DNA from: a virus | Direction: 5' to 3' (one strand) | Length of the DNA stretch: 19,307 bases | Virus record (IMG/VR): IMGVR_UViG_3300045988_034549 | Coordinates: 1-19,307 of that record | Shown here: positions 2,241 to 19,307 of the stretch, one piece after another | How the letters are laid out: each line of letters begins with the position of its first letter | How positions within the stretch are numbered: the first letter of the stretch is position 1 | Position numbers and translations under genes: made by a program | Notes under the pieces: model-generated | What the model saw: only the letters and a program-made list of their open reading frames with translations | Told to the model about the DNA's origin: nothing | Database searches by the model: none

Positions 2241-2810
2241 TTAAACATATCTTCACTTGAATCCTTTAGCTGTATTTGCTAATCCACCACATACTCTACT
2301 AATAGCTCCTCTATCAGTTCCTACAGATTTGGCTGCTTCTGTGCAACTTTCATACTCTTGAATAAAATTACCATCTAAATCATACTGAGCTACTTTACGA
2401 CATCTTTGTTTGTTATGAGCATCTACTTTAACTCTTCAAGATTCTGGGCAATTATGTTTCTTTCCCTTATTAGAATTAGACAGTTTCTTCTTTCATTCAG
2501 AATTAAATTTGACTCCGTAATTGCCTCCTTCTCCTCCAGGTTTCAAATTTAAACACATAGGATCAGTGTCCCATTTATCTCCAATTAGTTTGTATTCTAA
2601 TTTAGATAATTCATCTGCATTAGTGCAAGTTGCCAAAATAATCTTTTGGTATGCATTAGGGAATCTTTTGTAATAATTAGTAATAATCCTTCCTGATCCT
2701 TTATATGGATCTTTATTTATGTCTTTACCTCTATAAATCCTTTTCCCAATATAATACTTGCCTCTTAATGTACCTGCAGTTAAAATTATTTTATAACAAT
2801 AGTAAAACAT
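2241..2810 (-). CDS. GIY-YIG homing endonuclease with C-terminal DNA-binding domain (189 aa, 3 in-frame TGA)
   Basis: Track ORF 2493..2810 holds the GIY-YIG N-domain (YCYKI...KYYIGK). The same frame continues through TGA at 2493, 2436 and 2253 (tca on +) to TAA-TAA at 2241/2238. The read-through text is ...NSE-W-KKKLSNSNKGKKHNCPES-W-RVKVDAHNKQRCRKVAQYDLDGNFIQEYESCTEAAKSVGTDRGAISRVCGGLANTAKGFK-W-RYV. That is a typical endonuclease DNA-binding tail ending G-F-x-W-R-Y. Confidence 0.85.
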
Positions 2811-3262
2811 TATATAATAGTAAATTTCTGTCGTCTTTGCATTCCGTCTTTATTCTTTAATCCCAAGTGTATTCAACTTGCTATACCATTCTTAGGCTTT
2901 TCATATATCAACTGGTCTCAATTTAATTCTTCAATAGCTTCAGCAATCCAACTTTGGAATACTTTCATATTACCATTAATTGGAGATATATCTGCTGCAT
3001 ACCCTGTTAAATGAGCAGAAGTTGAAGATCCTCCCACTGCTTTATTAAGCTCCTTATTTCTAAAACCAGAGGAAATCCTGATGCCTGCGTTACCAAGCTG
3101 ATTGTCATCACAATACTTTGCCCATCTCTCTCTTATTGGGTCTAAAAGCTTCTCGACCAACTCTATCAGGTGCTCTGTTATACTCTCATCTGGAGTGTTA
3201 TCTATATGCTTAATTGAAGCAGTATCAGATCTTGTTAATTCTTCGAGTGTGAAATACTTCAT
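2810..3262 (-). CDS. peptidase M15 family (Peptidase_M15_3-like) peptidoglycan hydrolase, endolysin (150 aa, 2 in-frame TGA)
   Basis: Track ORF 2918..3262 contains SGFRNKELNKAVGGSSTSAHLTGYAADI (H-x6-D zinc motif). The frame continues through TGA at 2918 and 2873 as -W-DQLIYEKPKNGIAS-W-IHLGLKNKDGMQRRQKFTII. This restores the expected C-terminal W-x-H zinc ligand. Stop TAA 2810..2812 overlaps the next ATG (TAATG). Confidence 0.85.
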
Positions 3263-3420
3263 TATTTATATGAATTATGCAGTTTATAAAGATAAATAAA
3301 ATAGCACACTGCTCCAAATAACGTTAAACTAATAGTAATCCAAAAAGGAATTACTTTAATTAACAAAAATGCAATCATTAATAGTACAACTACTATTACA
3401 TATTTTAACCAATATTTCAT
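3262..3420 (-). CDS. small two-TM membrane protein, holin candidate (52 aa)
   Basis: ATG 3418..3420 to TAA 3262..3264 gives MKYWLKYVIVVVLLMIAFLLIKVIPFWITISLTLFGAVCYFIYLYKLHNSYK. There are two hydrophobic helices. It lies immediately upstream of the endolysin and is coupled to it by a TAATG overlap. It is too short for the ORF track. Confidence 0.55.
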   Translation of the reverse strand: MKYWLKYVIVVVLLMIAFLLIKVIPFWITISLTLFGAVCYFIYLYKLHNSYK

Positions 3421-3421
3421 A

Positions 3422-4078
3422 TTATATCTTATTTAAAATTATACTTATCTGTATTCCAACTCTTCTTAGATGTACTCAAGTATCATAAGGCATAGGTGTA
3501 TCACAGAATGATAAACCTAAAATGCCAATATCTTTATCCTCAGTCTTTAAATAAAATACTGCTATTTCATTCACTCCGTTGGATTTAAATGCATAATATA
3601 ATCTTGGATCATCTGCTTCTAAACTATCTATATTACCAAACCATCCATCATTCTTAGAAAACTCTATAATTGAAGTATAGTCAGATAACAGGAAGTCTTT
3701 ATAATGGCTACTTACAGATCGTATTCCTGGTTTAACTTCCTCGGCATTCATTACTCCATAAGTAAACGGAAGTCCTCCTAATCCAGTAGTTCCATTATGA
3801 TATTCAATAACCCAAGCTCTATCAGCATTTGTGCTTTGAAGCAATTCTTTAAGCTTATATTTAATCTTTAAAGTTGCTTCATTTCTTGCAATAGTTTTAG
3901 AATTGTGAGTTTGTTCAATATAGGTTACAACCTTATTATAAACAATAGAGGGATTAAGTGTAATAACCATTACATAGGATATAAATATTAATCCAATCCC
4001 TGCTTTAAATATCTTTAGTAATCCATATTTATCTACTCATTCTAATACCTTTCCAAACCAGTTTAATTTATTTTCCAT
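3422..4078 (-). CDS. N-terminally membrane-anchored protein of unknown function, lysis-cassette position (218 aa, 2 in-frame TGA)
   Basis: Track ORF 3476..3970 extends in frame at both ends. Upstream it runs to ATG 4076..4078: MENKLNWFGKVLE-W(TGA 4037)-VDKYGLLKIFKAGIGLIFISYV-MVITLN. Downstream it passes TGA 3476 (...PYDT-W-VHLRRVGIQISIILNKI) to TAA 3422..3424. It has one predicted TM helix followed by a soluble domain of about 170 aa. Confidence 0.7.
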
Positions 4079-4503
4079 TACATATTATCAGAACAAGTAC
4101 CCAGAGTATTGTCTACAGCTAAATCAACTCTAACAAATACTCCAGTACAAATATCTTTGAACTTCTGATAAAATGGAGTAAAAATTAAAGGATAAGAAAT
4201 ATCAACTTCTGGATATTGGTTATTAAATCGGTTAATTATATTAGTTAATGCTAATATTCCAGCTGATTGCTCTTCAAGCTGATTATTATCAGTTTCATCC
4301 CATCTTGCTATAAAATAGAGATTTAAAGAGTAAGTAATAGTATCCTCATCCATATTAAATGTATTTGGAGTTATATAAAATACATTATATTCAATAGTTG
4401 GGATACTATTAAGTTCATATATATCCTTACTTCCTACAAAATTAATATTGGGTTCTTCAAGAGCACAAGCTTTTAAATTGTTTATTAATTCAAAATACGT
4501 CAT
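4078..4503 (-). CDS. hypothetical virion/connector-region protein (141 aa)
   Basis: This is track ORF 4078..4605, trimmed to ATG 4501..4503 (MTYFELINNLKACALEEPNINF...). That ATG lies 1 nt after the upstream gene's TAA (4505..4507). There is no in-frame TGA. Any function is inferred only from its position after the portal. Confidence 0.6.
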   Translation of the reverse strand: MTYFELINNLKACALEEPNINFVGSKDIYELNSIPTIEYNVFYITPNTFNMDEDTITYSLNLYFIARWDETDNNQLEEQSAGILALTNIINRFNNQYPEVDISYPLIFTPFYQKFKDICTGVFVRVDLAVDNTLGTCSDNM

Positions 4504-4504
4504 C

Positions 4505-5188
4505 TTACTTACTCTTTTTATTGTTATCACTTGAAGGGAAATCATAAGCTCTTTGCAGAGGACCTTCACAAGAATTATATCTCCAACCTTTACCTCTAGC
4601 TCCACCTAACCAAATAGTACAAGATGAACTTGAATACATATTTGGATACATATCTTTAAGAGGTTTATAAGAATACAATTCAGGAAAATCATTATAATAT
4701 GTAATTACCCAATTTTGTAATCTCGTTTTAAAGAAATCTGCTTTATCTCTATAATATTTCTTAATAAGATTAACTTGGCTAATATCAGAAGTTAAATCTT
4801 TCTCATCATCAGTCCTCATAACCCCAAAGTTACTAAGCTTAAACGAAATAGGTATAGTAATCTCACTTAATACTTGATAAAGTAAATAAGGCTGAATATA
4901 GTAATCTAGCAATTCTTTATATCTATGATTTTCTGGGTCATCTATTGAAGTAGGATCATAAATAGGAGGTTCTATTGGATGAACTGGTTTATTTGGATCT
5001 TTTCAATCAATTACTAATTTCTGAATCTTTTCTAAGAGCTTAGTTCCAATTAATGACTGAAGCTCAATATCTTGTGCAAGTTTAATTGCTGACTGAAGAT
5101 ATTTACCAGAAACATTATTGTCTAAATTGGATTCTGATTTTATATAATCTTCAGATATTAATAGTACATTTCTATAATTATTTTCCAT
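4505..5188 (-). CDS. putative head-tail adaptor/connector protein (227 aa, 1 in-frame TGA)
   Basis: Track ORFs 5003..5188 and 4505..4912 are in the same frame. They are separated only by TGA 5003..5005 and an open stretch: ...KLVID-W-KDPNKPVHPIEPPIYDPTSIDDPENHRYKELLDYY... The N-terminal text (SGKYLQSAIKLAQDIELQSLIG) resembles gp6-like adaptor N-termini. This is motif memory only. Confidence 0.65.
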
Positions 5189-6270
5189 TATTCAACTTGT
5201 TTAGTATCAGCTTCATTAAGGCTAAATGGTGAAATTGTGATTGAATTCTGCATTCCAAAGATCTTATCAAATGAATCACAAATCTCTTTCTGAATAGGTC
5301 TAATCATAGTTCTATTATAAAGCTTGAATGAAGATTCAAATTCTTGCTCATTAAAACCAGTTGAATCTGAGTTAATTCCAAATAAGTTAGGATTAGCTCT
5401 GAAGGCACAGAATATTTGATCTCTGGTTCTCTCAGATAATGATTGATATTTCTCATCAAAATCATCAGAATCTAATCTTTCAATAGTAGTCTTATTTGCC
5501 TCATCTGCATTATATGAAATCAATATTCTGCCAGCATTCTGATAACCAGAGAACTTCTCATTAATATTCCTCTCAATCTCCTCTCTAATTTCATCTGTAG
5601 GTTCCCCATTATTAAAGTTAATAATAAGATTACCCATAAATCCATTATTGATGTTATTTAAATGGAATTCATTAATATTTTTCTCAGTTTCGCAAGATAA
5701 AATAGCAGCTCCATAAACAGGAATAGGATATACTCCTCTTGTTATATAACCTTTATTATAAAATATACTAGCTGGATTTTCATCCCCAGCTCCAAATTTT
5801 GGATATTTTATAGCTTTTACAGACCAAGCTGTCCAATCAGTTGCATAATATAATACATCATTCTTTTCGCTTGACCTTACATTCATAAAATCAATATGAT
5901 AGATCTCTGCAACTCTTCCAATCATATCTCTAATTACTTGGATAGCATAACCTCCAAATATCATCTTATCAATAGTGATTTTTCTCATTATATCAACTAT
6001 TGTTTCCCCTTTTTTATTTACAACTACTTCAAATCCTGGAGCATTACATTTAACATCATTACCAACAATAAAGTCAGCAGAACCATTAATAATGGATTGG
6101 AGAGTGGCAACATTTAAATATAAATCCCATAGATATAACGGATATTTGTTATCTTCTCCTCACATTACATAATCTTTTCCTCTTACTTTAGTTTCTGTAG
6201 GTAATACGATATTACTTGCAATAAATGGATCAATAGCACTTAACTGAACTTTTGTTTTATTTTCGCTCAT
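5188..6270 (-). CDS. portal protein (360 aa, 1 in-frame TGA)
   Basis: Track ORF 5188..5988 has a portal-like core (GFMGNLIINFNNG...FSGYQNAGRILISY...DQIFCAFRANPNLFGI). The frame extends upstream through TGA 6160..6162 to ATG 6268..6270: MSENKTKVQLSAIDPFIASNIVLPTETKVRGKDYVM-W-GEDNKYPLYLWDLYLNVATLQSIINGSADFIVG. This gives the W-G-x-D-N-x-Y-P N-terminal portal motif. Confidence 0.85.
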
Positions 6271-6649
6271 AACTTACGTATGTATTAGGTTTGTCGTATT
6301 GATAATTATTATTCTCATAATCTCCAATTCTTATTAATCCTGTTCCCAATATAGGTATTGGTTTACCAGCTACTAATATCTGAGTGCCATTAGTAAGAGT
6401 ATTATTATATGTAACCAAGATAACTGGATTTCCATATAACTCTGATCTAAATGGATTGTTTACATCAACTATAACTTGAAATTTATTTGGATTAGTAAAT
6501 AAAATATATTGATATTCACCGTCTCTCATTCCTTCTTGAAGTGTAATATCAAACTTATAGTAGATATTCTCAGAATAATTCTGATTTTCAAGATCAAATG
6601 TATAAACTTCTTTAGTAGTTGTATTTTGCATTAATAGAGTATAATTCAT
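6257..6649 (-). CDS. hypothetical protein (130 aa)
   Basis: Intact standard-code ORF with a TAA stop. It overlaps the portal start by 14 nt. It is the first gene after the 6650..6805 intergenic region. I recognise no motif. Confidence 0.6.
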   Translation of the reverse strand: MNYTLLMQNTTTKEVYTFDLENQNYSENIYYKFDITLQEGMRDGEYQYILFTNPNKFQVIVDVNNPFRSELYGNPVILVTYNNTLTNGTQILVAGKPIPILGTGLIRIGDYENNNYQYDKPNTYVSYERK

Positions 6650-6681
6650 ATTTTACAGCAATTTACATTAGTTTTACATAT

Positions 6682-6700
6682 CTTTTTCTTAAAATATAAA
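6682..6700 (-). promoter_or_regulatory. conserved intergenic motif TTTATATTTTAAGAAAAAG (minus strand), candidate late promoter element
   Basis: It is near-identical (18/19 with one gap) to the motif at 12254..12272. In both cases it lies about 27-30 nt downstream of a terminator hairpin and upstream of the next gene's ATG. Confidence 0.35.
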
Positions 6701-6727
6701 CCAATTTACTAATGTATTAAAATAATT

Positions 6728-6749
6728 AAAGGAGACCTAAGCCTCCTTT
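6728..6749 (-). terminator. rho-independent terminator after the DUF285-like gene
   Basis: Stem aaaggag (6728..6734) / ctccttt (6743..6749) with an 8-nt loop. On the minus strand an A/T-rich tract follows (aattatttta). It lies 57 nt after the TAA at 6806. Confidence 0.6.
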
Positions 6750-6805
6750 AATGTCAAGTTTTTTACTCACTCAAAGTACTAAGAAAAAATAAAAACTGAC
6801 AAAAA

Positions 6806-7822
6806 TTATGCTGACGCTAAAGTTCAGTTTTTAGATGTAGCTAATGATTTCTGTTCTTCAGTAAGTGCATTATAAACATCTGCTGCAAATGTAATAGTTT
6901 GAGATACTTCTCCAGTTAAATCAGCAGCTTTATTTAAAATGTTATCAATAGCTGCACTATTTAACGACTGGAGTAAAGATAAATTTAATTTCGCTCTTAA
7001 ATTTATAATACCTTCCATATCAGTTATTGATGTATTTGGAGATTCCCAACTATAAAAAGGCCAATTATTAAAGGACTGACCTTCATTTACACCTGTTAAA
7101 TCTCATTCTGGCAAAGTTGTAATTGTATCAGGTAAATAACTATAAGTACCTCCACATTCAAGATTAATAGATGATCCTACTAATTCAAACTTAATATCTG
7201 GGAGAGTAGTAATAGTGGATGTTAAATTGGCAAAAGTGGCATTAAACACAACATACGGAGTATCATTTTCTTCATCTCTAATAATTATATGATTGCATAC
7301 AACATTAGAAGAATTAAACATTTGACTTAAATCATATCAAGCAGTATTAGTTTGTAGTATAATTGTATCTAATGTTAAAGCATTAGCATTAAAACTACTA
7401 AACATATTATTGCCATCGCGTATAGTAATTTCCTGTGGGAAATCTATTTGATTTATTTTAGCATTACTCAACATACCCGAACAATCGTAATTTAAATCTG
7501 TATTTCACATAGAAAACAGATTTATATATGCATTAGGAGACTGCATATGCGAAAAAAAATTTCTCGTACTTGTAAAATCAGGTAAATCAAAGATAATCTG
7601 ATTTACTTGATTATCAGTAGGACTAGAATATGCAAATGTTAATCCATAATCATTTAAATTAATCTTTCCTCCACCACCTCCAGAAATCTGTCCTATCTTA
7701 TCTGCATAGCTTCTAAAGGTATCGGAATCTGATACAGCAACACCTTTAGCTACAATAGCATCTTTAATGGCACTCTTAGTACCTTCAAGATACGTTAATT
7801 TATCAGAAATTGTATTTGCCAT
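6806..7822 (-). CDS. DUF285/BspA-like repeat tail fiber or receptor-binding protein (338 aa, 4 in-frame TGA)
   Basis: Track ORFs 7505..7822, 7103..7321 and 6824..7018 share one frame. I checked every intervening codon and the only interruptions are TGA at 7505, 7337, 7103 and 6824. Fused text: ...NLFSM-W-NTDLNYDCSGMLSNA...TNTA-W-YDLSQMFNSS...TTLPE-W-DLTGVNEGQSFNNWPF...EEQKSLATSKN-W-TLASA, ending at TAA 6806. The N-terminus (MANTISDKLTYLEGTKSAIKDAIVAKGV) looks like a phage-fiber N-terminus. Confidence 0.8.
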
Positions 7823-7823
7823 A

Positions 7824-8477
7824 TTAGATTACTTCACCATTAATTGTATCAAGAGTAGTTGAAATATTACCAATCTGAGCTTGAATAGCTGAAATTTCTC
7901 CATCTAACTCTGTCATCTTTGTATTATATGTATCTGTAGTTACATAGTTTGATAACTCATTTTTATCTGCTTTAAGTGCAACTTCATCTTTAGTAGCTAA
8001 TCCAGATACATCAGGAATCTTATTCTCTACAGCTGTAAGCTCTTCTTTAGTAGCAAAATCACTAGTATCAGGAATTTCTGCTTTAGTTGCATAATTACTT
8101 AAATCTACAGATAGTTGCAAACCTTCTCCATTTCTATGTAAAGATAGAGGTTGATTAGCTTGGAATACTTCCATCTTAGAAGTTTCTAACTCCTCAACTT
8201 CTCCTTTAAGATTAGTAATCTCAGTATTAATTGGAACAAGTTTAGCATCAATAGATTGATCTACTAAAGGAGGAACTTGATCTTCAATACTTTCTGTTAC
8301 TTTAGTATTAATTAACTCTTCTGCTTTCTCCTCAGAAATGTAATTACCTTTAGGTTGAAATCTCGCATCTGCTTCAATCTTTGTATAAGAACCAACTGGA
8401 AGCTGAGCTGTCTCAATACCACATTTCTTACTAACATAGAAGGTCTGAGTATTCTTAGTATTCTTTAATATAATCAT
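7824..8477 (-). CDS. coiled-coil tail fiber protein (217 aa)
   Basis: Intact ORF with a TAA stop. It has reiterated x-ATK-x-E modules (NYATKAEIPDTSDFATKEELTAVENKIPDVSGLATKDEVALKAD) and a heptad-like C-terminus. There are no Trp codons. Confidence 0.65.
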   Translation of the reverse strand: MIILKNTKNTQTFYVSKKCGIETAQLPVGSYTKIEADARFQPKGNYISEEKAEELINTKVTESIEDQVPPLVDQSIDAKLVPINTEITNLKGEVEELETSKMEVFQANQPLSLHRNGEGLQLSVDLSNYATKAEIPDTSDFATKEELTAVENKIPDVSGLATKDEVALKADKNELSNYVTTDTYNTKMTELDGEISAIQAQIGNISTTLDTINGEVI

Positions 8478-8485
8478 AGTTTTTA

Positions 8486-8707
8486 TTATTTAAGAGATTC
8501 TTCAATCGCCTTCTCAGCTTGTTCTTTATAAACCCTGTCTTGTTCTAGGGATATTTCTCTTAGATGAGTTAAATCGCAATCTAATGGACAAATACACTCT
8601 TTAAATGAGTTATACCCTTTAATATCCATTTCGTCTTTATAGTTAGTCAGAAGCATACTATCTTCAGGCTTAACTACTTGATACTTTTCTTTAATTTCAA
8701 CTTTCAT
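8486..8707 (-). CDS. small hypothetical protein (73 aa), possible fiber assembly factor
   Basis: Intact ORF with a TAA stop, packed 1 nt after the upstream gene's stop. It contains a Cys cluster (CICPLDC). Any function is inferred only from position. Confidence 0.5.
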   Translation of the reverse strand: MKVEIKEKYQVVKPEDSMLLTNYKDEMDIKGYNSFKECICPLDCDLTHLREISLEQDRVYKEQAEKAIEESLK

Positions 8708-8708
8708 A

Positions 8709-9635
8709 TTAGTATGTTACTGACCAGCCTTTACTGGTGATTTGTGATTTTTGTTCCTCTGTTAATGAATTGTAAACATTCTCTGCAAGTTTTAGAACTC
8801 CAGCAAGTGATTCTCTTGGAGTAGCTAAATTATTAATTATATTCTGTACCGATTGATTAGTTAACTTTGGGCTATCTTCAAAATTTAATCCAGCAACGGA
8901 GTTAGTAGTAAAGCATTTTCCTATATCTTTAAACCCTCCAACATTTTCTAAATTAGATAAACCATTAAATGTAAGACTTAAATATTCCCAAGAATATGCA
9001 TCATATAAAGGCATAGTAGTTAATGAAGTACAACCATCGAATAATCTGCTTACATTAACTGTATGAGTTACTAAATAATCCCTATGAGGAAATGTTATAT
9101 TTGGAGCAGTAATTAAAGATCTACAATTTCCAAACATCCAGTTATAATTATATATCTTAGAACCATCAAAATCTCCTATAATAGTAGTTAATGAAGTGCA
9201 TCCTTGTAAGGTACAATAAAAACCTCCAAAATTATTTAATAGTCCTAATTCATCTTCTCCACCTTCAACCATTCCAGTATCAAATGTAGTTAAATCAGCA
9301 CAACTTTGAAAAAGTCTCATAAATACTACCTTATCATCATTAGATGCAGGAACATTGAATTTTTTGTAATCCTCGTTAGTAACTACAGCAGAACCAGTAA
9401 ATGCAGAGCTATTTGAAGTATTTGGATAATATCAGCTTTTTACACTGTCTATATTACAATCCGTTACAGGTTTATCATCTAATAAAAGTATTTTAACTTG
9501 ACTTCCAAATACTGGGTCTATAAAGGTTATAGGATTACAAGGATCAATAGGCCAGACTTTGGTACTGCCTACATAAATGGCAGTACCTTGTCTGTTACCT
9601 ACATAAAAAGCTTTTAAATTATCTCGAATATTCAT
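8709..9635 (-). CDS. DUF285/BspA-like repeat receptor-binding protein, paralog of 6806..7822 (308 aa, 1 in-frame TGA)
   Basis: Track ORFs 9432..9635 and 8709..9320 share one frame and are joined through TGA 9432..9434 (...DSVKS-W-YYPNTSNSSAFTGSAVV...). LRR-like repeats are present (LQGCTSLTTI, FGNCRSLITAP, FDGCTSLTTMP). The C-terminus VYNSLTEEQKSQITSKGWSVTY parallels that of the 6806..7822 gene. Confidence 0.8.
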
Positions 9636-9636: not shown

Positions 9637-12249
9637 TTACTCTACAATTAAATATTGAGTATTTGGATCTTTGCTTGAAATAGCATCATATTCGGACTGA
9701 GTTACCACAAGAATAGTATGAACTTGTGGTTGAGTTCCACTTCCATAAGTAACTGGATTAGAAACACTCTCAATATCTATATTTCCACTACCTAACAAAC
9801 TTTCTCCATTAACTGTCTTGATATTTGTTCCGCTAACTAAAGTATCTTGTTTATTTCCTAATCCTGCATTTAATTCAGTTTCCGTAACATATTCATCAGG
9901 AATAGAAGTTAAAAATCCACTATCATTAGTAAGCTCAGATGTCTTAGTTGGTATACCTAAATCTGATAAACTCTTATTACCACTAAGTTCAACAGAATTA
10001 ATCTGAGGTTTATTTGTTAACTGAGTATAGTCAGTAGTCCCTCCACCTCCAGATATTTCAAGATTACCTTCTCCTAAAATACTTTCACCATTAATAGTCT
10101 TTATATTAGTCCCAGAGACTAATTGCTCTTGATAACTATGATAACTAGTATCTGCTGATACTCCAGTTGGAGTAATAGTAGTTTGAACTACAGTATGATT
10201 AGCTGTAGTACTTTCAAAATGGAAAGTAGCTTGAATATTTTCTCCTGAAACAAAACATACTTCTGGAGCTGCTATATCACCATAACCTAGAATATTTACA
10301 TAATAAAGCTCAAATGGTGTTTTATTAGCTATAGCATTCTTAACAGCAGCGAAATCTCCAGAAAGATGAGTAGTGGAATTTATAAATAGAAATGGAATAT
10401 TAGAACCACTTTCAATTTCTATATTACCTTCTCCAAGTAAAGACTGACTATTGATTGTTTTGATATTAGTTCCACTTACAAGCAAATCTTGCTTAGTAGC
10501 CATCTCTTTATCAAGAGAATCAATCTTATCTCCATCTTCTTCTTGTTTTGTTTTAATAATTGATATATCTGAAGTATTAGTTGCTACTTGAGTAGATAAA
10601 GATTCTACCACAGAAGAATCAGCTTTACCAGCAAGTTCTGTTTTTGTTGCATAATCTCCTACAGGCTGTTTAGTAGCAAGCTGCTCATCGACATAAGTCT
10701 TATCTGCTTTACCTGCTAAATCTCCAGAAACCTCTGCTTCAGTTACAAAGTTAGAATCATTAGTAAGCTCACTAACTTTAGTTGGAATATCACTCTTTAA
10801 AGCATAATCTCCTTTATCTTGTTTTGCATCAATCTTACTTTGTAAAGAAGATCTTAGAGTCTCAATTTCCTCATTAACTGAATCGTTAGTTGCATAATCA
10901 CCAACTGGTTGGTATCCAGATAAATCTACAGATAATTGTGATTTATCTTCATTAAAAGCTAATGGAGCTTGTGGAGTAAATACACCTTGCTTAGCTGCAA
11001 GTTTCTCATCTACTTCATCTTTAGTATATCCTTTATTAGTAAGATCAACCTCAGTAACTTTAACAGTCATATTACCATTATTTACTAAGATTGCATTAAT
11101 AACTACTAATACACCATTATCTTGAAAATAATAGCCATATAAATCAATAGTTTCGGGATGTTCAATAGTTGCAACAGGAATAACTATAATATCACCTTTA
11201 TATGTAATCTGGCAGAATAAATAGAAGTCCAGATTAGTTCTAATAAAGTCATAGATATGTTTCTGTCTTACAGGATCATTCTCATCTAAATTAAGTAAGA
11301 AATGATTCTCAAAAGCAGAGATTACATTATCTATAATAGATATATTCTTTCCTGCTGTAAGCGTTTCCTGTTTTGAAGCTATCTCTTTATTAATAGCTGT
11401 ATTTAAAGCATCAATTTCAGCTTTGGTATATTTATCTGCTAATTGTGCATATAGAGGACCATTAACAATACCAGCTTGATTAGTCTCTGTATTATATATT
11501 GGAAGTTCAACTGCTTTTCCAGTTTGATTGCCAAATACAGGAGCTAAAGTAACTTTAGATGGGACTGATTGAATATTAATGGCAGGTACAATTGAAGCTG
11601 CTCCAGATAATTCAGTTCCATTTAAAGATGGTTTGTTACGAATAGTATTATAATCTGCAGAAATAGTATTCTCTTCAATTACTATACCGTCACCTTGGTT
11701 TAATTTATTCTGTTTAGAATTTAATGCACTTTCAGTAGCTTCTTTTGTAAGATAATTATCTTCAACTCATTTTTCAGTAGCATATCCATCTAAGCTACTA
11801 ATAAACCCACTATCATTAGTTAATTGTGAAGTTTTTGTTGGTATCTCAGATTTATCGGCTTTATTGGTAACTGCATCTGAAATTTCAGTTGTAACCTCTT
11901 CTTTAGTTGGATAATCAGCTAATCGTTCAGTTATCTGATTATCAATATTTTCAGCACTTGGAATAGTACTCTTTATTTGCTCTAACTCAGAATTAATAGT
12001 AACAATATCTTCAGATGACGCTAATCCCAACTCTTCTGAAGTCATATTACCATTTAACTCAATGCCATTGATTTCAGGTTTATCCTGAAGATCAAAATAG
12101 CTATTAGTAGCTAACTGAGAACCATCCATAACCTTAACTTCATCATCCTTGTCAATAACAATAACTTTAGTCACATTTGACTTATCTATTGTTTCGACTT
12201 CAAGGACATTAAGATAAGGAAGAATTGTCTTTTCAGTTTCGTTTGCCAT
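9637..12249 (-). CDS. long modular tail fiber protein (870 aa, 1 in-frame TGA)
   Basis: Track ORFs 11767..12249 and 9637..11070 are in the same frame. I translated 11071..11766 codon by codon. It is open and has no ATG/TTG/GTG, which explains why the track has no ORF there. The only interruption is TGA 11767..11769 (...LDGYATEK-W-VEDNYLTKEATESALNSKQNKLNQGDG...). Fiber motifs recur throughout. Confidence 0.85.
9769..9849 (-). repeat. in-frame coding repeat, copy 3 (QDTLVSGTNIKTVNGESLLGSGNIDIE)
   Basis: One of three diverged copies of the L-V-S-G-T-N-I-K-T-(I/V)-N-x-x-S-(L/I)-L-G-x-G-N-(I/L)-(E/D)-I module within the fiber gene. Confidence 0.85.
10054..10128 (-). repeat. in-frame coding repeat, copy 2 (EQLVSGTNIKTINGESILGEGNLEI)
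   Basis: Same module as at 9769..9849 and 10411..10491. A Gly run (SGGGG) follows it. Confidence 0.85.
10411..10491 (-). repeat. in-frame coding repeat, copy 1 (QDLLVSGTNIKTINSQSLLGEGNIEIE)
   Basis: Same module as above. The nucleotide similarity is visible, for example ccttctcc(a/t)a...actttc / agactg...attgat / attaat. Confidence 0.85.
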
Positions 12250-12253
12250 ATTA

Positions 12254-12289: not shown

Positions 12290-12330
12290 TATAAACAAAA
12301 TAAGGGGCAAGTAAATTAATACTCGCCCCT
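12290..12330 (-). terminator. rho-independent terminator after the capsid operon
   Basis: GC-rich hairpin aggggcaag (12303..12311) / ctcgcccct (12322..12330) with one mismatch and a 10-nt loop. On the minus strand TTATTTTGTTT follows. It starts 10 nt after the TAA at 12340. Confidence 0.8.
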
Positions 12331-12339
12331 CTTCTGTTG

Positions 12340-12864
12340 TTAAGCACCTACAACACTTTGAATAGCTTCAGCACTCAACTCATAAGGATATGATTCAGAG
12401 TCAGTAGCTAAAGTCAGCGTATAAGCGTTCTGATCACCTTTTGCAGTACCAGTAACACCCGTACCAGCGGAAGCGCTTACATAGTCATCTTTTCCTAAGA
12501 ACCAGTATTTGCCATTAGAATCTTCTACAACAACTACAAGTTGTCCAATAGAAAGAGCAGCAATCTCGATTCTTTTCTTAGTCTCCATCTTTGTAAATAC
12601 AAGAGCAAGCTCATTACTTACATAGTTGGTTCCTGCAGTTTCGTCAACGTTCAATGTTGAGGTTAGAGAACCAGTACCTTTGCGGAATTGGTAATTATAC
12701 CATTTAGCATCTGCTTCAAGAGTAATAGCTGAGATTTGATTAGTCTCATCATCTACAGTTACACTCTTAACATTATCGTACTGAGTAATCCATACCTGTT
12801 TGATACCACCAAGCGAAGATTCGCAATCCAGGGTAATACCAGCGATAGTTATTAAACAAGCCAT
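12340..12864 (-). CDS. abundant structural protein, possibly major tail (tube)-like (174 aa)
   Basis: Intact ORF directly after the major capsid gene and before a strong terminator. Its G+C is visibly elevated, like the capsid gene. All 3 Trp are TGG. The text (SIGQLVVVVEDSNGKYWFLGKDD...GTGVTGTAKGDQNAYTLTL) resembles tail-tube-type proteins. This is motif memory only. Confidence 0.45.
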   Translation of the reverse strand: MACLITIAGITLDCESSLGGIKQVWITQYDNVKSVTVDDETNQISAITLEADAKWYNYQFRKGTGSLTSTLNVDETAGTNYVSNELALVFTKMETKKRIEIAALSIGQLVVVVEDSNGKYWFLGKDDYVSASAGTGVTGTAKGDQNAYTLTLATDSESYPYELSAEAIQSVVGA

Positions 12865-12902
12865 ATAATTTCAATCTTATTTAAAGTTAAACTCTATTGA
12901 AA

Positions 12903-13808
12903 TTAGGCTTTGGCACCAAGAACTACCTCATCAGGGAATGCAACCTGTACGCCAGCGTTAAATTCAATAGCTAATCTAAATTCGCGGAAATCTTGTGAAT
13001 ACCACAATTCAAACTTCTCTTCATCGTTCATCATATCGCAACCATAGAAGAAGTTCTTATCTAACTGACCAGCAACAATCTTATCAGTTCCATTAAGACC
13101 ATTAACAGCGATTACTTTAACCTGCGAACCAGGAAGCATAATCTCACCATTAAGATTCTCACCACTATAGTGGTAGTAGTTCTTAGCAACTAACTCCTGG
13201 ATAAATTTACGGAAAGTATCACTGCCAACTAAGATAGAAGCACCATCCAGAACCTTCTCAGGAATAGCGTTATAAACAGCCATAATGTCATCATAAGCAG
13301 ATGCTCCAGTAATTTCTACATCAACAACCCCATCAGCAGCACCAAGGATCTTTAACAGACCATCAAAATACTTCAGGTTATTTGTTTCAGAAGTAGTATC
13401 ACCCTGCCAAATAGCAGTCTCAATAGCAGCCTTAACATTCTCAACTACTGCATTTACGAAATCCTCTTCAAAAGGAAGCGTCTTCTGACCAGCAGCTACT
13501 CGTACTTGATACTGAGTCCAGTATTTAAGCATCTCTTTATCACAATATGCCATATTGATCTTAATATTACCAGTAGCCAGAATTCTCTGAGAAAGAGTCT
13601 GAGTTCCAGCTTCATCCCAACCACAAGCTAGGCCATCGCCAAACTGAATAGCAGTTGATAACAGGTTAAGAGCAGCACTAGTTTTGATGTCAGTTTGAAG
13701 ATTGAACAACGAAGCACTCTTAGCCTTTAATACAGCCTCTTTAATAAGAGGAAGACGTCTCTGCTCTACATAAGCAGTAAGACTAGTCATTACAGGACTA
13801 TTTGCCAT
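12903..13808 (-). CDS. major capsid protein, HK97-fold type (301 aa)
   Basis: Intact ORF placed after the protease and scaffold genes. Capsid-like text is present (AIETAIWQGDTTSETNNLKYFDGLLKIL, ...FELWYSQDFREFRLAIEFNAGVQVAFPDEV). All 4 Trp are TGG. G+C is visibly higher than in flanking genes. Confidence 0.85.
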   Translation of the reverse strand: MANSPVMTSLTAYVEQRRLPLIKEAVLKAKSASLFNLQTDIKTSAALNLLSTAIQFGDGLACGWDEAGTQTLSQRILATGNIKINMAYCDKEMLKYWTQYQVRVAAGQKTLPFEEDFVNAVVENVKAAIETAIWQGDTTSETNNLKYFDGLLKILGAADGVVDVEITGASAYDDIMAVYNAIPEKVLDGASILVGSDTFRKFIQELVAKNYYHYSGENLNGEIMLPGSQVKVIAVNGLNGTDKIVAGQLDKNFFYGCDMMNDEEKFELWYSQDFREFRLAIEFNAGVQVAFPDEVVLGAKA

Positions 13809-13830
13809 AATTTTATAAATAATTTAATAA

Positions 13831-14433
13831 TTAACCAATAAAGTTTTTAAGCTTTTTATCAATAACAGGATTACCAGTCATTATTGAAGCTTTGCCTTCT
13901 ATCTGTTCCTCAGCTGAAAATGCAGCACTCATTTTGCTCATCTTTTCAACCGTCTTTTCTGTAGCTTCAGATTTACCCTCTAATTCAGCTACTTTCTTAA
14001 CAAGCTTATCAACAATGTCATAAAGCTCATTAATTTCGCGATGAATTGCATCAATTGCATCAGTTACAGTTTCTTTGTCACCATCAGTAGCTACTTCAGG
14101 ATCAACTGGCTCTTCAGCAGTTTCTACCTTGCGTTTTCCACAAGCAGCATCAACTTCTGCTTTAGCTGCTTCTTCTGGATCAACCTCAGCTTTAGGATCA
14201 GTTACAGACTCTACTTTACCGTCTTTAACAACAATCGTCTTTCCATCCTCAGTTACATACTCACCATCCTCAGCAGGTTTGTATTCTCCGTTCTCATCCT
14301 GAACATATACATCCATACCAGCGCGTAAGTCTTCATCTGAATCCCAAGTAAGTACTGCCTTATCAGTTTTAATATCACTGAACTTTGCAAGCATTTTAGC
14401 CAATTCAAGCTTGATTCTTGTGAATTTGCTCAT
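13831..14433 (-). CDS. scaffolding protein (200 aa)
   Basis: Acidic, Lys/Glu-rich protein with a coiled-coil-like C-terminal half (INELYDIVDKLVKKVAELEGKSEATEKTVEKM). It is located between the prohead protease and the major capsid protein. Confidence 0.7.
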   Translation of the reverse strand: MSKFTRIKLELAKMLAKFSDIKTDKAVLTWDSDEDLRAGMDVYVQDENGEYKPAEDGEYVTEDGKTIVVKDGKVESVTDPKAEVDPEEAAKAEVDAACGKRKVETAEEPVDPEVATDGDKETVTDAIDAIHREINELYDIVDKLVKKVAELEGKSEATEKTVEKMSKMSAAFSAEEQIEGKASIMTGNPVIDKKLKNFIG

Positions 14434-14446
14434 TTAATTAATAATT

Positions 14447-15040
14447 TTAATGTTTAACTCTTTTTATCTTCTTAATCATATTAAGGATCTCTTTTATTTC
14501 GTCATATTCATCAGACTTTCTCTCTAAAGTAAATAAACCTTCAATTGAGAACCCTTTAAACTTACCAGCTTTAATTGCATCTCAAATAACTTGATTATCT
14601 ACTTTATAAGTGGCAAATAAAGAACCATCAGGAACATCCTGGAATTCAACTGGAGATATTCCTCTATTAATATCCTTTACATAGATTTCTTGTAGAGTAA
14701 TTCCATTTAAATCAGAATCTTCTAAATGTTCAATATTTACATCTGTAGTTCTTTTATCATACAGCATCTTCTCTGCCATTTTACGAAGAGTTTCCTTATC
14801 ATACTGTATGTAGTATTCTCCGAGTTTCTCATCTCGTCTGAAAATTGGAGTATCACTTAACATTAAGCAAGATGTTACTAAATGCTTATCTTCATCCATC
14901 GAGAACTTCTGAGAATTACTAAAAGCAACCCAGTTAACTTGTGTAGCTGGTTTACTTGTTAAAGCAACATATTCTATTCCATCACAATCATCAGTAATCA
15001 CTACCTGAAATAATGGAAGATCATTATAAGTAATTTCCAT
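14447..15040 (-). CDS. prohead protease, XkdF-like (Peptidase_S78_2-type) (197 aa, 1 in-frame TGA)
   Basis: Track ORF 14582..15040 continues through TGA 14582..14584 as ...YKVDNQVI-W-DAIKAGKFKGFSIEGLFTLERKSDEYDEIKEILNMIKKIKRVKH, ending at TAA 14447. The W-x-x-(I/V)-K-x-G-x-x-x-G-F-S-I-E-G segment is the characteristic C-terminal motif of this family. Confidence 0.75.
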
Positions 15041-15103
15041 TTTTATTAATATATAGCACTTTATAAATTTGTAATATTTTTAGAATATCTAATGTAACCT
15101 TTT

Positions 15104-15141
15104 TACTCATATTTTGTAGTTAATAAGAATAAAAAAGTTAC
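15104..15141. repeat. AT-rich inverted repeat in the intergenic region between the tape-measure and protease genes
   Basis: gtaacctttttac (15104..) pairs with the gtaaaaaagttac-type arm ending at 15141. On the minus RNA this forms a stem of about 12 bp with one G-U pair and a 24-nt loop. No clean U-tract follows, so its function is uncertain. Confidence 0.35.
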
Positions 15142-15152
15142 ACTAAATATTT

Positions 15153-17921
15153 TTAGAATGAAGCATTAGATTCAGTAACTGCTACCTTAGTTTGAGCTGA
15201 AGTAATGTCAGATTCAACAACATAACACTTAACAGGTTCATTTAAAAGGTCAGTTTCTTTATCTCCAAGTAAGTTTCGAGTATATTCAACAGGAGCTGTA
15301 TTTAAAGCAGCTGGTGCTGCCACTGCTGCAGATGCTCCACTCACTCCACTTGCACCTGATTCATCTACTTCTCAAATCTTTTTAACATTTGCAATACCTG
15401 CAACTACTGCGGCTGCAGCTGCAGCAATACCTAAAGCAGGACCTACAATAGGAATTCCTGCCATAGCAGAGTATGCGCTATTTGCTGCTGAATAAGTGTC
15501 AATTAATGCTTGAGCAGTAGCAAATCCTTTACCTACTTTACTTTCCTCTCCCCAAATACTTGCCATACTTCCTGCAATGCTTGAAGCTACAGATAAAGTT
15601 CCCTGTAAAGCTTGCTGCCTTGCTTTTTGAAGATTTTGATAAGCCTGAGTATTTGCCTGTTCATTAGCTAATTGAGCATCTGATAAGGCCATATTATTCT
15701 CAGTAAGAGTTCTTTGAATTTCCTCTTTTTGTTCAGCAGTTAATTGTTCATTCATTAATTGCTGACTTAATAAGGCATTCTCTTGCTCTATTCTACCTTG
15801 AGTTAATGAGAGTAAGTTGTTATTGTATTCAATTTGAGCATTGTATTGATTCTCTAAGTCCTCTCTACTCTGATATGTAAATTTATAACCAGTCCCTTCA
15901 TAATCTCCAGCCAATCCAAATGCTTTCGATATACCTTGAGTATAAGTAGTCTGAAAGGTCTGCTCTCTTGGCTCTCTCAAATTACTTGTAGAAGATAAAT
16001 CTCTAATCCTTTTTAATTCAGACTGTAGATCATTCCAAGCTTTATCTGCATCTGCTTTACGCTTAGCTTCTTCATCAGCTCTAGCTTTATCTCTAATCTT
16101 TTTAAGTTCTTCCTGATGCCAAGCTTCTACCTCTTCAATTCCCCTATTATACTTAATAGCTAATGCTAATAGTCTAATATATTCATCTTCAAGTTCATCT
16201 ACTGGGTCTTTATCCTCTAATCTCTTTTGAAGCCATTCATCAAATTCATTTATTACCTTCTTAGCTTCAGTAGTGTTCTTTGTAATAGTTGGAATATTAA
16301 AGAACCCACCATACTTTTTATTAGTATCTGCTACATCCTCAAATAGCTTTTTAAGCCTTTTCTCAATGTCTTTATTTAAATCATCCAACTGTTTATAAGT
16401 ATTCTCTTTATTTTGCTTTGTGTACTCATAAATTGTATTTGAATAATCTTTTCAGAACATTGCTGTAGCTTTAAAAGCCTGCCAAGCAGATGCCTCTCCA
16501 AAACTTGTATCAGAAATTTGATTCTCCAGTTCAGTACGTTTATTTAAATACTCCTCATAAAGCTTAATTGCAGCCTGTTCAATAGCCTGAGCTTTTGCTC
16601 TTGCAGTTAATGCTTCTACATAATTACCAGTATTATTTACAAACGCATCTTCTGCAGTCTTTACATCAGTGATATTTAAACCAGTCTCTTTAATCTTATC
16701 TGAATATTGCTCTATAAACTTACGCTTAGCATCTGCAGAATCTCCAACCCTTTCGTAAGCTATTTGTAACTCTCTAAAGATAGCTATAGATTTAGAAGCA
16801 ATCTGATTAGTAGTATCTGTAATAGACTTTCTAAATTCAGCAGCCTCCTTTTCAGCTGATTTTATTGAGGATATATACTCTATTATCTTATTAATAGCTA
16901 ATCCAATAGCTGTAGCTAATGCAATTCATACAGTTACATTACCAATAGTTTTAAGTGCAGTTTTAACTTTACCTACTCCAGAAGCAGCTTGTTCTGAAGC
17001 TTCAGCCATTGCTTTCTGAGCCTCTGCCCCTTTTCGCAAAGTTGGAATGCCTTTTTCTACATTTTCCTTTAATTCAGCAAGATCTACACCTAAACGTTTA
17101 GCAGCTTTCTGCATTCTCTCTGCTGGAGTTCCAGTCTCTTTTGCTGCTTCCTTTAAAAATTCAGCAACTGTAGTAAATGTAGGTTTTACTTCTTCAAAGG
17201 ACTTTTTTGCAGTTTCTCCTAATTTACCTATAATCGGAATCGTATTAGATACACTCTTATTAGTAGCAGATATTTCAGCAGGAGTGCCCATTACTCCTTG
17301 AATCATACCTCCTTTAAAATTAATATTGGTGCCTTCTAAATCCTTGACTACTTTAGAGATATTACCTAATTCAGTTCCAACATTACCAACAGATGTGCCA
17401 ATGCCATTAAGCTTAGATGCATCAATCTGATTAAGATTTTTGGCAGCATTATTCAACCCTGTATTAAATGGAGAGATAAAATCAGTTAATTTCTTAAACC
17501 AATTACCTAAAGTAGGCAATTCTTCTAATAAATCTTTTATACCTCCAATACCTTGTACTAATGCAATAGATGACTGTAACTTAACCATTACTTTAGTTAA
17601 ATCTTCAGATTCTTTCCCAAATAAAGTAATGGCAGCTGTTGCAGCTCCATATCCACTGGCCAAACCAGTGGATATTTTAGCTACACTTTCAAACCTTTGA
17701 GCAGTAGTTCTTGAAGATCTTGCTATCTGCTCATTAATTTTATTGAATTCTGATTGTCTCTTACCAAGTAATGAAAGAGTTTCATTATATTCCTTAGTAC
17801 CAATCTCTAAATCATTCAGCGAATTAGTTAATGCATCAATATCTTTCTTTAAAGAGTTTATTGACTTATTACTTGACTTAGTATCAATACTAATAACCTT
17901 TTTAATTTCTGTTTGTGCCAT
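15153..17921 (-). CDS. tail tape-measure-like protein (922 aa, 3 in-frame TGA)
   Basis: Track ORFs 16926..17921, 15372..16388 and 15153..15344 share one frame. I translated 16389..16925 and 15345..15371 codon by codon and the only interruptions are TGA at 16926, 16452 and 15372. TMP-like features are present: an N-terminal coiled coil, TAQRFESVAKISTGLASGYGAATAAITLFG, the hydrophobic IALATAIGLAINKII right after TGA 16926, and a Gly/Ala-zipper C-terminal segment GIPIVGPALGIAAAAAAVVAGIANVKKI-W-EVDESGASG... Confidence 0.8.
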
Positions 17922-19307
17922 TAGATTGTAATATTTTTAACAGTATCTTCTGTTAGTGTTAAATTCTCTGTATATTTAACTGTTCCTGTAGGTCCATCAG
18001 TCACTTCAAATTTAAACTGAACACCTTTTTGAGCATATATTCTATAATTTCCATTATCCTGCATATAAGCCACATTCAAGAAGTTATCGTTTTCTGTAAG
18101 TATCTGATTTACCCCAGTTGGTATAGTGCCACTTGGAGTTTCTAATTTGCCTGTAATAAGAACAGCTTTATTTGGGTCTGGAGTTTGAGTAAACATACAT
18201 TTAGGACCATCTACGCCTCCTTGTTTATAAAGACTAAAGTAGAAACTTCTTTGGTCATATTTAGTATTCTCATTATAAGTAACTGTTAATTCTGTTTCTC
18301 CAGGTTGCCCAGATTCAGGTGTAATGCTTACAATTTCATTTGGACTATATCATCCTAATTCTCAAGGAATATTAGAAGTAACTGTAATCTTTTTAGTCCC
18401 AGCTTTATAATCTACAACTGGATCTGAATCATCAAATGATATATATTCACCTAGATTTTGAATTCCAGCTAAATAACTATTAATATCTTGAACTTTAATA
18501 AATTCACATCTAACTGTAGAATCTGAATTAATATCATAAGCATCAATCTTATTAAGTACCCAGTAAGAATCTTCAAAATAATAGAACTGTCTAAGTAAAT
18601 CATACTTAACATCTAAATCATCCAATCTTACAAAGCAGGTAACTTTTTTAGTATTTACATCAAATTGATCATTATAAAATTCACTCCAGAATCTACTATA
18701 AATAGTACTTCCGATATTATAAGTTATATCATCAATATAAATCTCTTGTGGTAATCCAAAATCTCAAGAAGCAGTAACATTAGAGGACGAAACGGTATAC
18801 CTTGTAAATTGAGGTAATACAGTTCTCTTTATAGCAATTTTATTCCCCCTAATATCTTTCTCACTTTTAGTAGATATATAACACATTTCCTGATCATTTA
18901 ATATGTTCATTTCTGTAAGATCATCTGTAATTCAATATGTTACTTCATTTCCTTTTACATCAGTTAAAGGAACATTACCGTTAAAGAATACTAGGGATTG
19001 AGAGATATCCTCTAAAGATTCCTCATTACCATCAATTGAGAAAAATACATTTTTGGCAAATATATCATTACCTGCGATTTTATATCATTCTGTGGTTTTA
19101 GAGGGATCTATAAAATTAGCTCCGTATAACTCTTGATCTATAGTCTTAAGTTCAGTAGTGCTATTATTAAATAATGTATAGGTAATATTATCATTCATAA
19201 ATGCAGGAACTACAAGGGAAGAAGAATTGTAAAAATTTCTAAAATATTTATTTCTCCATCTTGCAGAAACTATATTTTCATATATATTATCACTATACAG
19301 TTCAGTT
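17921..19307 (-). CDS. large virion (tail-associated?) protein, 5' end outside the window (at least 461 aa, 5 in-frame TGA)
   Basis: Track ORFs 18362..18625 and 17921..18196 share one frame. That frame is open from the window edge (19306) to TAA 17921..17923. Its only interruptions are TGA at 19085, 18932, 18764, 18362 and 18350. The C-terminal part looks like beta-sandwich/Ig-like modules (ITPESGQPGETELTVTYNENTKYDQRSFYFSL). The stop overlaps the tape-measure ATG (TAATG). Confidence 0.75.

Follow-up and report, generated by a model that had tools for sequence, protein, structure and literature searches.

This analysis concerns the use of the codon TGA in a 19,307-nucleotide stretch of viral DNA (positions 1 to 19,307 of the IMG/VR record IMGVR_UViG_3300045988_034549), hereafter the window. 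The window has 31% GC and represents about two-thirds of a ~31-kb phage genome. Throughout this genome TGA stands in frame within genes and encodes tryptophan (Trp), and no phage tRNA is detectable. We consider it likely that the phage is written in genetic code 4 genome-wide, that the decoder is not phage-encoded, and that the host is a Bacteroidales member using the standard code. UGA would then be read as Trp across the whole genome, including the early genes, with UAA and UAG as the sole stops. The decoding capacity would be present in the cell on arrival of the phage or be supplied in trans.

The major capsid protein was used as a query to collect 54 related IMG/VR contigs, of which 0 are identical to the window. 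The lineage is abundant in the human gut, with more than 50 near-identical IMG/VR contigs. Overlapping loci of the same contigs were assembled into five complete circular genomes, which measure 30.3-33.6 kb and carry terminal repeats of 55 or 85 bp. The part of the genome outside the window encodes the large terminase subunit, endonucleases of the HNH, GIY-YIG and T5orf172 types, a small sigma-region-4/helix-turn-helix (HTH) protein and small open reading frames (ORFs). The phage is an uncultured tailed phage, probably of siphovirus-like type, since a tape-measure protein is present and a sheath protein was not found. Among GenBank phages, neither megablast of the full window nor a tblastn search with the major capsid protein gave a match. 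With no GenBank match and no cultured relative, the lineage has no known host.

In-frame TGA codons and the residue they encode

The window was annotated with 19 minus-strand genes (g1 to g19) and, on the plus strand, a helicase-like gene plus three small genes. The first-pass annotation of the window had listed 24 TGA sites as the breaks between co-linear ORF fragments. All 24 read TCA on the plus strand; on the minus strand each falls in frame as a TGA within a gene and after its start codon (five in g1, four in g11, three each in g2 and g19, two each in g16 and g18, and one each in g3, g7, g8, g13 and g14). The fusions were also said to cross no TAA or TAG, and 0 in-frame TAA or TAG were indeed found in 5,542 minus-strand codons. 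In the other two frames TAA and TAG make up 8.3% of codons and the mean open run is 12 codons, so the chance of open flanks at each TGA is 10^-5.6 to 10^-35 per gene. No gene relies on TGA for its stop, as had been stated: TAA terminates 19 of 19 minus-strand genes, and TAG the helicase-like gene. Some of the earlier counts required correction. The minus-strand genes do all end in TAA, but they number 19 rather than 18; the 24 TGA stand, but TGG was counted 39 times rather than about 37. Eleven full-length genes had been expected from the fusions; because the 5' end of g1 is cut by the window edge, there are ten complete genes and one partial gene. A 25th in-frame TGA lies on the plus strand at 1825-1827, in a small gene (1711-1923) that follows the helicase-like gene and lies outside the range covered by the first pass.

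Coding density was estimated by greedy ORF calling under translation tables 11 and 4, with table 15 (TAG recoded) as a control. In the window, the comparison proposed with the first-pass annotation gave a density of 0.730 with table 11, 0.953 with table 4 and, for the control, 0.802. In the five complete genomes, density rose from 0.61-0.73 under table 11 to 0.88-0.93 under table 4; with the window included, the ranges are 0.61-0.75 and 0.88-0.95. Across the window and seven relatives the gain under table 4 was +0.17 to +0.29, and only +0.02 to +0.07 under table 15; published thresholds for recoding are a 5-10% gain in coding density or potential. Recoding of TAG (table 15) or TAA was rejected, as it gave no meaningful gain or spurious ORFs only.

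The effect on annotation is considerable. Standard-code annotation cuts the lysin to 127-129 amino acids (aa) and fragments the portal, tape-measure and fibre genes. In databases, 41 lysin homologs of 126-129 aa end exactly at a TGA (codon 127 or 129), because standard-code calling of recoded relatives stops there. Some of these truncated homologs (among database proteins P0144-P0239) carry the JGI labels 'putative chitinase', 'YcbK' and 'YcbK DUF882'. The earlier statement that standard-code callers would miss the recoding is thus right in that such calls truncate genes, but current gene callers do handle TGA-to-Trp recoding. In practical terms, an abundant human-gut lineage is mis-annotated under the standard code.

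The residue at TGA has been proposed to be Trp, and several comparisons agree. When the 54 related contigs were aligned codon by codon, the TGA sites of the window were occupied by TGA in 237 and by TGG in 164 of 567 aligned cells, with 12 glycine codons and a few dozen aromatic codons. The TGG sites of the window were occupied by TGG 792 times and by TGA 76 times. The exchange of TGA and TGG at the same positions indicates that the two codons act as synonyms. Since this alternation test is possibly circular, the comparison was repeated on standard-code relatives only, a set of 27 related loci without a table-4 density gain that were translated with table 11. Here codon 153 of the g3 protease was W in 26 of 26 relatives and codon 37 of the g13 portal protein was W in 17 and Y in 8; codon 130 of g18 and codon 14 of g16 had one match each, both W. 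Database homologs gave the same picture, with W 86 and Y 21 at portal column 37 and W in 79 of 79 full-length homologs at lysin column 130. Lysin column 115 is aromatic as well (F 97, W 15, Y 7). Counting TGA raises the Trp share of residues to 1.14%, from 0.70% with TGG alone. Code 25, in which TGA encodes glycine, was rejected on the 12 glycine codons in 567 cells against 164 TGG, and on W 49 and G 10 in the standard-code relatives.

Profile searches of the fused proteins, a check suggested in the first pass, gave Pfam and PHROG matches that cross the TGA sites or go on past them. The Pfam scores exceeded the gathering scores for Phage_portal in g13 (58.3 against 39.1 bits), Peptidase_M15_3 in g18 (52.4 against 23.2) and Peptidase_S78_2 in g3 (36.4 against 24). 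Two family assignments were not recovered. DUF285 (PF03382) had no match in g11 among Pfam models at E<=10 and only a sub-threshold one in g8 (17.3 bits against a cut-off of 25, E 0.004), and g19 matched NUMOD1 and I-HmuI-like domains rather than the GIY-YIG model. The proposed alignment of paralogs was upheld: the C-terminal TSKN-w-TL of g11, where w is the TGA, corresponds to TSKG-W-SV of g8. The short tails that follow the late TGAs of g19 and g11 match W-containing ends of paralogs, and the g19 paralogs in relatives have a terminal W-x-x-x motif. A search of solved structures with the lysin gave only a partial match to 1lbu, which ends short of the TGA sites.

TGA across the genome and the search for a decoder

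The features of the window are as follows (TGA positions are given in plus-strand coordinates).

42..1763, plus strand: helicase-like gene, 572 aa, with DEYH, TAT and QxxGRxxR-type motifs and no Pfam or PHROG match; 0 TGA, 4 TGG; stop TAG
1711..1923, plus strand: small gene, 70 aa, of homolog family r17; TGA at 1825-1827
1926-2060 and 2062-2202, plus strand: two small genes without TGA, matching r16 and r15 of a complete relative by tblastn at 89-91% identity
2205..2233, no strand: bidirectional terminator-like hairpin between the convergent plus- and minus-strand transcription units
2241..2810, minus strand: g19, homing-endonuclease-like, with NUMOD1 and I-HmuI NUMOD-like domains; TGA at 2253, 2436 and 2493
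2810..3262, minus strand: g18, Peptidase_M15_3 endolysin (Pfam E 6.5e-14); TGA at 2873 (codon 130) and 2918 (codon 115)
3262..3420, minus strand: g17, 52 aa, putative holin judging by position and hydrophobicity; no TGA
3422..4078, minus strand: g16, with an N-terminal hydrophobic segment; TGA at 3476 and 4037; codon 14 alternates between TGA and TGG in relatives
4078..4545, minus strand: g15; no TGA
4505..5188, minus strand: g14, DUF6712 protein (Pfam E 7e-11); TGA at 5003, where relatives have TGG 12 and TGA 9
5188..6270, minus strand: g13, portal protein (PF04860 E 1e-15, phrog_11226); TGA at 6160 (codon 37)
6257..6649, minus strand: g12; no TGA
6725..6812, no strand: intergenic; holds a minus-strand terminator-like hairpin at 6725-6752 and a single copy of a ~50-nt element
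6806..7822, minus strand: g11, tail-fibre/receptor-binding-like, paralog of g8; TGA at 6824, 7103, 7337 and 7505; at site 333 relatives have TGA 20 and TGG 3
7824-8477, minus strand: g10, coiled-coil fibre-like; no TGA
8486-8707, minus strand: g9; no TGA
8709..9635, minus strand: g8, fibre-like, with a weak DUF285 match; TGA at 9432, where relatives have TGA 6 and TGG 5
9637..12249, minus strand: g7, tail fibre, 870 aa, with a C-terminal Phage_tail_C domain (PF24243 E 7e-10); TGA at 11767
12302..12331, minus strand: terminator-like hairpin between g6 and g7
12340..12864, minus strand: g6, candidate abundant virion protein (phrog_19091); no TGA
12903..13808, minus strand: g5, major capsid protein (phrog_11320, phrog_1623, phrog_10); no TGA
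13831..14433, minus strand: g4, acidic protein, scaffold-like by position and composition; no TGA
14447..15040, minus strand: g3, XkdF-type head maturation protease (PF14550 E 6e-9, residues 48-168); TGA at 14582 (codon 153), where close relatives have TGG 41 and TGA 9
15153..17921, minus strand: g2, tape-measure protein, 922 aa (phrog_3336 E 2e-12); TGA at 15372, 16452 and 16926, alternating with TGG in relatives
17921..19306, minus strand: g1, C-terminal 461 aa of a tail/baseplate protein of ~1,119 aa (1,119 aa at full length in a relative), cut by the window end; weak match to viral BACON_2 (E 0.0024); TGA at 18350, 18362, 18764, 18932 and 19085, alternating with TGG in relatives at 5 of 5 sites

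The first-pass annotation had described the recoding as a trait of the late-gene block. This restriction was not borne out, as a TGA lies on the plus strand at 1825 and early or regulatory genes of the complete relatives carry TGA. In the five complete genomes TGA is present in almost every module, and in pooled non-identical gene copies it makes up 36% of the Trp codons. In the complete relatives, TGA accounts for 0.27-1.0 of the Trp codons in small genes of early or regulatory type (HNH and T5orf172 endonucleases, the sigma-region-4/HTH protein and small ORFs), for 0.7-0.8 in the families of the fibre-like g11 and g19-type endonucleases, and for 0.31-0.48 in those of the tape-measure and large tail proteins. 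Family r17 has 16 TGA and 0 TGG. Other families hold few TGAs or none: 1 TGA against 109 TGG in the helicase-like family (24 relatives), 0 against 140 in the major capsid protein family, 1 against 86 in the g6 family, 0 against 23 and 0 against 25 in the scaffold-like and holin-like families, 4 against 49 in the protease family, and a TGA fraction of 0.12 in the portal family. The genes that avoid TGA are all late except the helicase-like gene. With most of the avoiders encoding the most abundant late proteins and one being early, the distribution does not fit a layout of standard early genes and recoded late genes.

TGA is also under-used relative to mutation bias. The A-ending fraction is 0.39 for Trp, against 0.68-0.97 for eleven other NNA/NNG codon pairs. 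We read this as TGA being decodable yet costly as a Trp codon. The purging of TGA from the helicase-like gene and the abundant virion proteins would fit competition with release factor 2 or a limiting suppressor. The base following TGA (position +4) is C in only 3.6% of cases, and no bias pointing to leaky termination was seen.

The decoder itself was sought in the phage. ARAGORN found no tRNA or tmRNA in the window or the five complete circular genomes, and hence not the tRNA with anticodon UCA for which the first pass had proposed a search. In the 83 family loci used for the tRNA search (L001-L083), the sole tRNA was a tRNA-Leu, found in L049, which is a distant relative with 48% identity. 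An Rfam scan of the window and one complete genome at E<=1 returned no tRNA, the only hits being sub-threshold chance matches to snoR43 and sraA. Pfam and PHROG scans, which covered most of the window proteins and most of those of one complete relative, found no release factor, tryptophanyl-tRNA synthetase (TrpRS) or tRNA-modifying enzyme, so that the proposed check for release-factor and TrpRS genes also came back negative on these proteins. DNA polymerase and integrase had no match among them either. Because TGA occurs in early genes too and no phage decoder was found, the cell would either be able to decode UGA before infection or receive this capacity in trans. By the same token, a phage-made late switch is unlikely, since early genes need TGA decoding and a decoder was not found.

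Other features of the genome may be mentioned here. Terminator-like hairpins are enriched in the window (15 against 5.9 +/- 2.7 expected from shuffles), the clear ones being those at 2205-2233, 6725-6752 and 12302-12331. The conserved ~50-nt element (GTCAAGTTTTTTACTCAC...AAGAAAA.ATAAAAA..GACAAAAA) lies at 6752-6805 in the plus-strand reading. It is present in 3-4 copies per complete relative, in intergenic gaps (in 097310, at 3711-3778, 11182-11235, 17349-17398 and 25927-25946). Its orientation is always that of the helicase-like gene, with one copy in the helicase-like leader and the rest antisense to late genes. For a genome of 31 kb, the phage holds unusually many homing-endonuclease-like genes (g19; genes r6, r14, r19, r22, r25 and r36 of 097310). 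These genes are of the NUMOD, HNH, GIY-YIG and T5orf172 types, most have several in-frame TGAs, and their insertion sites vary among relatives.

Host signals, the crAss-like link and rival explanations

Several indirect signals suggest, as the most likely host, a Bacteroidales bacterium with the standard code. Shine-Dalgarno-like 4-mers were found upstream of 9.8% of genes and at 10.5% of random positions. This lack of enrichment is typical of Bacteroidota, unlike most Firmicutes. All five complete genomes have conserved sites of the form TTTG-N17-21-TAnnTTTG, clustered in the early divergent intergenic stretch and oriented towards the genes both ways; TTTG/TAnnTTTG is the Bacteroidota -33/-7 promoter consensus. 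Matches to sigma-70-type promoters are depleted in the window (62 against 103 +/- 9 in shuffles). A lysin homolog with 52% identity was found in contractile injection system loci flanked by Mfa_like_1 fimbrillin and HU-HIG genes. In these loci, which have 53% GC, TGA serves as a stop and is absent from within reading frames. The cellular homologs of the lysin sit in Bacteroidales loci, which points to a Bacteroidales host. A scan of GTDB with a capsid profile was also tried as a route to the host and assigned none: most matches were phage-sized contigs in unrelated bins, and only distant relatives (35-40% identity) lay inside long Chitinophagaceae contigs.

The crAss-like phages provide a further link. 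In one relative, the central 2.26 kb of the g7 fibre gene is replaced by a crAss-like fibre segment of 2,256 nt, which contains in-frame TGAs and is 98.9-100% identical to fibre genes of TGA-recoded phages of 85-168 kb. At its N terminus the hybrid is still of g7 type, and at its C terminus it still ends in Phage_tail_C; the exchange has therefore kept the reading frame and looks functional. A segment shared at this identity argues for recent recombination inside one cell, and hence for both phage types sharing cells. For the large contigs (L105-L116, L144-L153), coding density is ~0.5-0.67 with table 11 and climbs to 0.93-0.97 with table 4; one of their proteins matches crAss-like phages and a Bacteroides uniformis phage. 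In many of their genes TGA outnumbers TGG. In ~40 of the ~94 kb of the crAss-like partner genomes, a scan for tRNA-shaped patterns together with two 10-kb walks found no tRNA, and hence no suppressor tRNA reading TGA (Sup-TCA).

A 148.6-kb IMG/VR contig was considered as a prophage in a host contig, a reading that was rejected because the contig is a chimeric assembly in which a crAss-like genome is fused to the complete small phage (locus L104; IMGVR_UViG_3300045988_175865, contig 105120-125977). The two parts are joined at the shared segment, and the last 2,256 nt (the end of L017) repeat an internal stretch exactly. Upstream of this stretch, the contig matches the 85-168-kb contigs over 13.7 kb at 99.7% identity. 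In L105, at 462-813, the crAss-like portal gene appears split, and within the gap ~50 nt match segments from unrelated phages of Staphylococcus and Aeromonas at 89-97% identity; the sequence suggests a putative self-splicing intron. The lineage of the window does not belong to the Crassvirales, with a genome of 30-34 kb against ~85 kb or more. When its head and packaging proteins were compared with 20-kb fibre-region pieces of the crAss-like contigs, only the fibre-like segment matched; as these pieces may not hold capsid or terminase genes, genome size is the firmer ground.

The recombination link suggests, without proving it, reliance on a decoder that is not phage-encoded. The small phage may, as a speculative and rather improbable variant, obtain UGA-to-Trp decoding from a TGA-recoded crAss-like phage in a shared Bacteroidales host, a form of translational hitch-hiking in which the partner may be a co-resident or persistently infecting large phage. 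The near-identical 2.26-kb segment with its TGAs and the need of the small phage for TGA decoding of its early genes would both fit. Alternatively, UGA may be decoded as Trp by a Bacteroidales lineage not yet recognised or by an element that the host carries.

Several points weigh against the favoured reading of a code-4 phage that lacks a decoder of its own and infects standard-code Bacteroidales. The host is identified only indirectly, with no CRISPR spacer match and no integrated copy, and genome bins of the related contigs are scattered (Clostridia, Lachnospiraceae, Bacteroidales, Methanosphaera) and consist mostly of phage-sized contigs. The GC content of the phage (29-31%) is below that of typical gut Bacteroidales. 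The promoter motif occurs 3-5 times per genome, only modestly above the shuffle mean of 1.4-1.7, which leaves the promoter argument to position and conservation. Neither ARAGORN nor Rfam would necessarily detect a tRNA that is split or very divergent. Strict avoidance of TGA in the helicase-like gene is not obviously explained if the cell decodes the codon efficiently.

Other explanations of the in-frame TGAs have to be weighed against these data. The phage could follow the native code of its host, either a member of the Mycoplasmatales or a code-4 gut lineage not yet recognised. This would account for the lack of a phage tRNA, the TGAs in early genes and the low GC. Mollicutes, however, have no cell wall, and the phage encodes a peptidoglycan peptidase and a holin-like gene; its promoters are of Bacteroidota type, it lacks a Shine-Dalgarno signal, and its lysin and fibre tie it to Bacteroidales and crAss-like phages. 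TGA makes up just 36-39% of the Trp codons despite 68-97% A-ending codons elsewhere. Most GenBank table-4 phages do infect Mycoplasma or Spiroplasma (PMC11210395), but close relatives such as L037, whose major capsid protein is 67% identical, use the standard code, and no code-4 Bacteroidota lineage appears in recent surveys (10.64898/2026.05.24.727570; PMC8629427). The peptidoglycan lysin, the Bacteroidales signals and the low share of TGA together argue against a wall-less Mycoplasmatales host, and native-code use is judged unlikely. Another possibility is that the TGAs are leaky stops, read inefficiently by the host tRNA-Trp(CCA) so as to damp low-copy proteins. TGA density is inverse to expected copy number (none in the capsid and scaffold-like genes and g6, many in the fibre and endonuclease genes), TGA is under-used relative to mutation bias, and tRNA-Trp(CCA) variants can read UGA (PMC13092985). 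At a readthrough of a few percent per site, though, genes with 3-10 TGAs would yield almost no full-length product, and essential proteins have that many (five in the last 461 aa of g1, ten in a homolog of it, four in g11 and nine in a fibre). The scarcity of C at +4 is not the context of leaky stops either, and this explanation has little probability.

Recoding confined to the late-gene block, as described in the first-pass annotation, could act as a timing switch in the manner of the Borges model, with early genes in the standard code and a suppressor made by the phage unlocking structural and lysis genes later in infection. Precedents are known from crAss-like, Agate and Jade phages (10.1101/2021.08.26.457843; PMC7886860), the helicase-like gene is free of TGA, and the lysin, fibre and tape-measure genes carry TGAs. 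What makes such a switch very unlikely here is the lack of a suppressor tRNA in five complete genomes and of RF1 or TrpRS among the scanned proteins, the TGA fractions of 0.27-1.0 in early or regulatory genes and the plus-strand TGA at 1825, and the (near) absence of TGA from the major capsid, scaffold-like, g6 and holin-like genes, which are late. Finally, the TGAs might reflect sequencing or assembly errors, pseudogenes, code 25 or selenocysteine. The bare presence of in-frame stops is all that speaks for an origin of this kind. The same TGA sites recur in dozens of independent assemblies and alternate mainly with TGG, in-frame TAA and TAG number zero, five relatives are circular and complete, homology continues past the TGAs, and glycine codons are rare at these sites. 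Artefact or decay is accordingly given a negligible probability, and code 25, sequencing error and pseudogenisation are excluded for practical purposes.

Comparison with known recoded phages

The phenomenon itself is not new. TGA-to-Trp recoding has been published for gut phages (10.1101/2021.08.26.457843; PMC7886860; PMC11210395; PMC8241571) and was screened for in the MGV catalogue (PMC8241571). Recoded clades with small genomes of 22-34 kb, including Garnet, Amethyst and Topaz, have been described (Borges et al., 10.1101/2021.08.26.457843); recoded phages are also the subject of Ivanova et al. (2014), as represented in that paper. The lineage of the window has the defining traits of a code-4 recoded phage, and differs from late-restricted recoding, from code 25 and from Mollicute phages. 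It contributes small genomes that are complete yet lack a tRNA, recoding that reaches the early genes, a clear gradation in TGA avoidance and signs of fresh recombination with TGA-recoded crAss-like phages.

Code switches have been reported over short evolutionary distances (10.1101/2021.08.26.457843; PMC7886860). The relatives of the window fit this pattern: recoded relatives (L035, L036, L039, L047) share 51-69% capsid-protein identity with it and standard-code relatives (L037 at 67%, L040, L043) share 56-67%. These three standard-code relatives have low GC and almost no TGA as stop or sense codon; L037 has 1 TGA against 44 TGG, and its stops are TAA 19 and TAG 3. They could represent a TGA-free intermediate state beside recoded sister lineages.

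A detectable Sup-TCA tRNA was reported in 35% (Borges et al., 10.1101/2021.08.26.457843) and 15% (Cook et al., PMC11210395) of code-4 phages. For recoding without such a tRNA, the published accounts invoke a host-encoded suppressor or an undetectably divergent one, and how decoding occurs in these phages is an acknowledged open question (10.1101/2021.08.26.457843; PMC7886860; PMC11210395). A complete 31-kb genome provides a compact case in which to address this question.

The code-4 gut phages resemble the present lineage in several respects. They come from gut or rumen metagenomes, their TGAs fall at Trp columns, table 4 restores their low coding density, they have close standard-code relatives and genomes of ~30-34 kb, and they often lack a detectable suppressor tRNA. 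The differences are that the absence of a tRNA is established here on five complete circular genomes rather than on fragments, and that early and regulatory genes are recoded, with the avoiders being mostly abundant virion proteins rather than the early class. The crAss-like TGA-recoded phages (Yutin et al., PMC7886860; Zeta group, phage Lera, PMC12386605) share code 4, low GC and a Bacteroidales-type signal with the lineage, and the 2.26-kb fibre segment with one relative of the window phage. Their genomes are 85-190 kb, against 31 kb here, and many carry tRNA arrays that include Sup-TCA, whereas none was found in the window lineage. The table-4 phages of Mycoplasma and Spiroplasma likewise read TGA as Trp, lack a suppressor tRNA and have low GC; unlike them, the present phage combines a peptidoglycan endolysin with Bacteroidota-type promoters and no Shine-Dalgarno signal, and uses TGA as the minority Trp codon.

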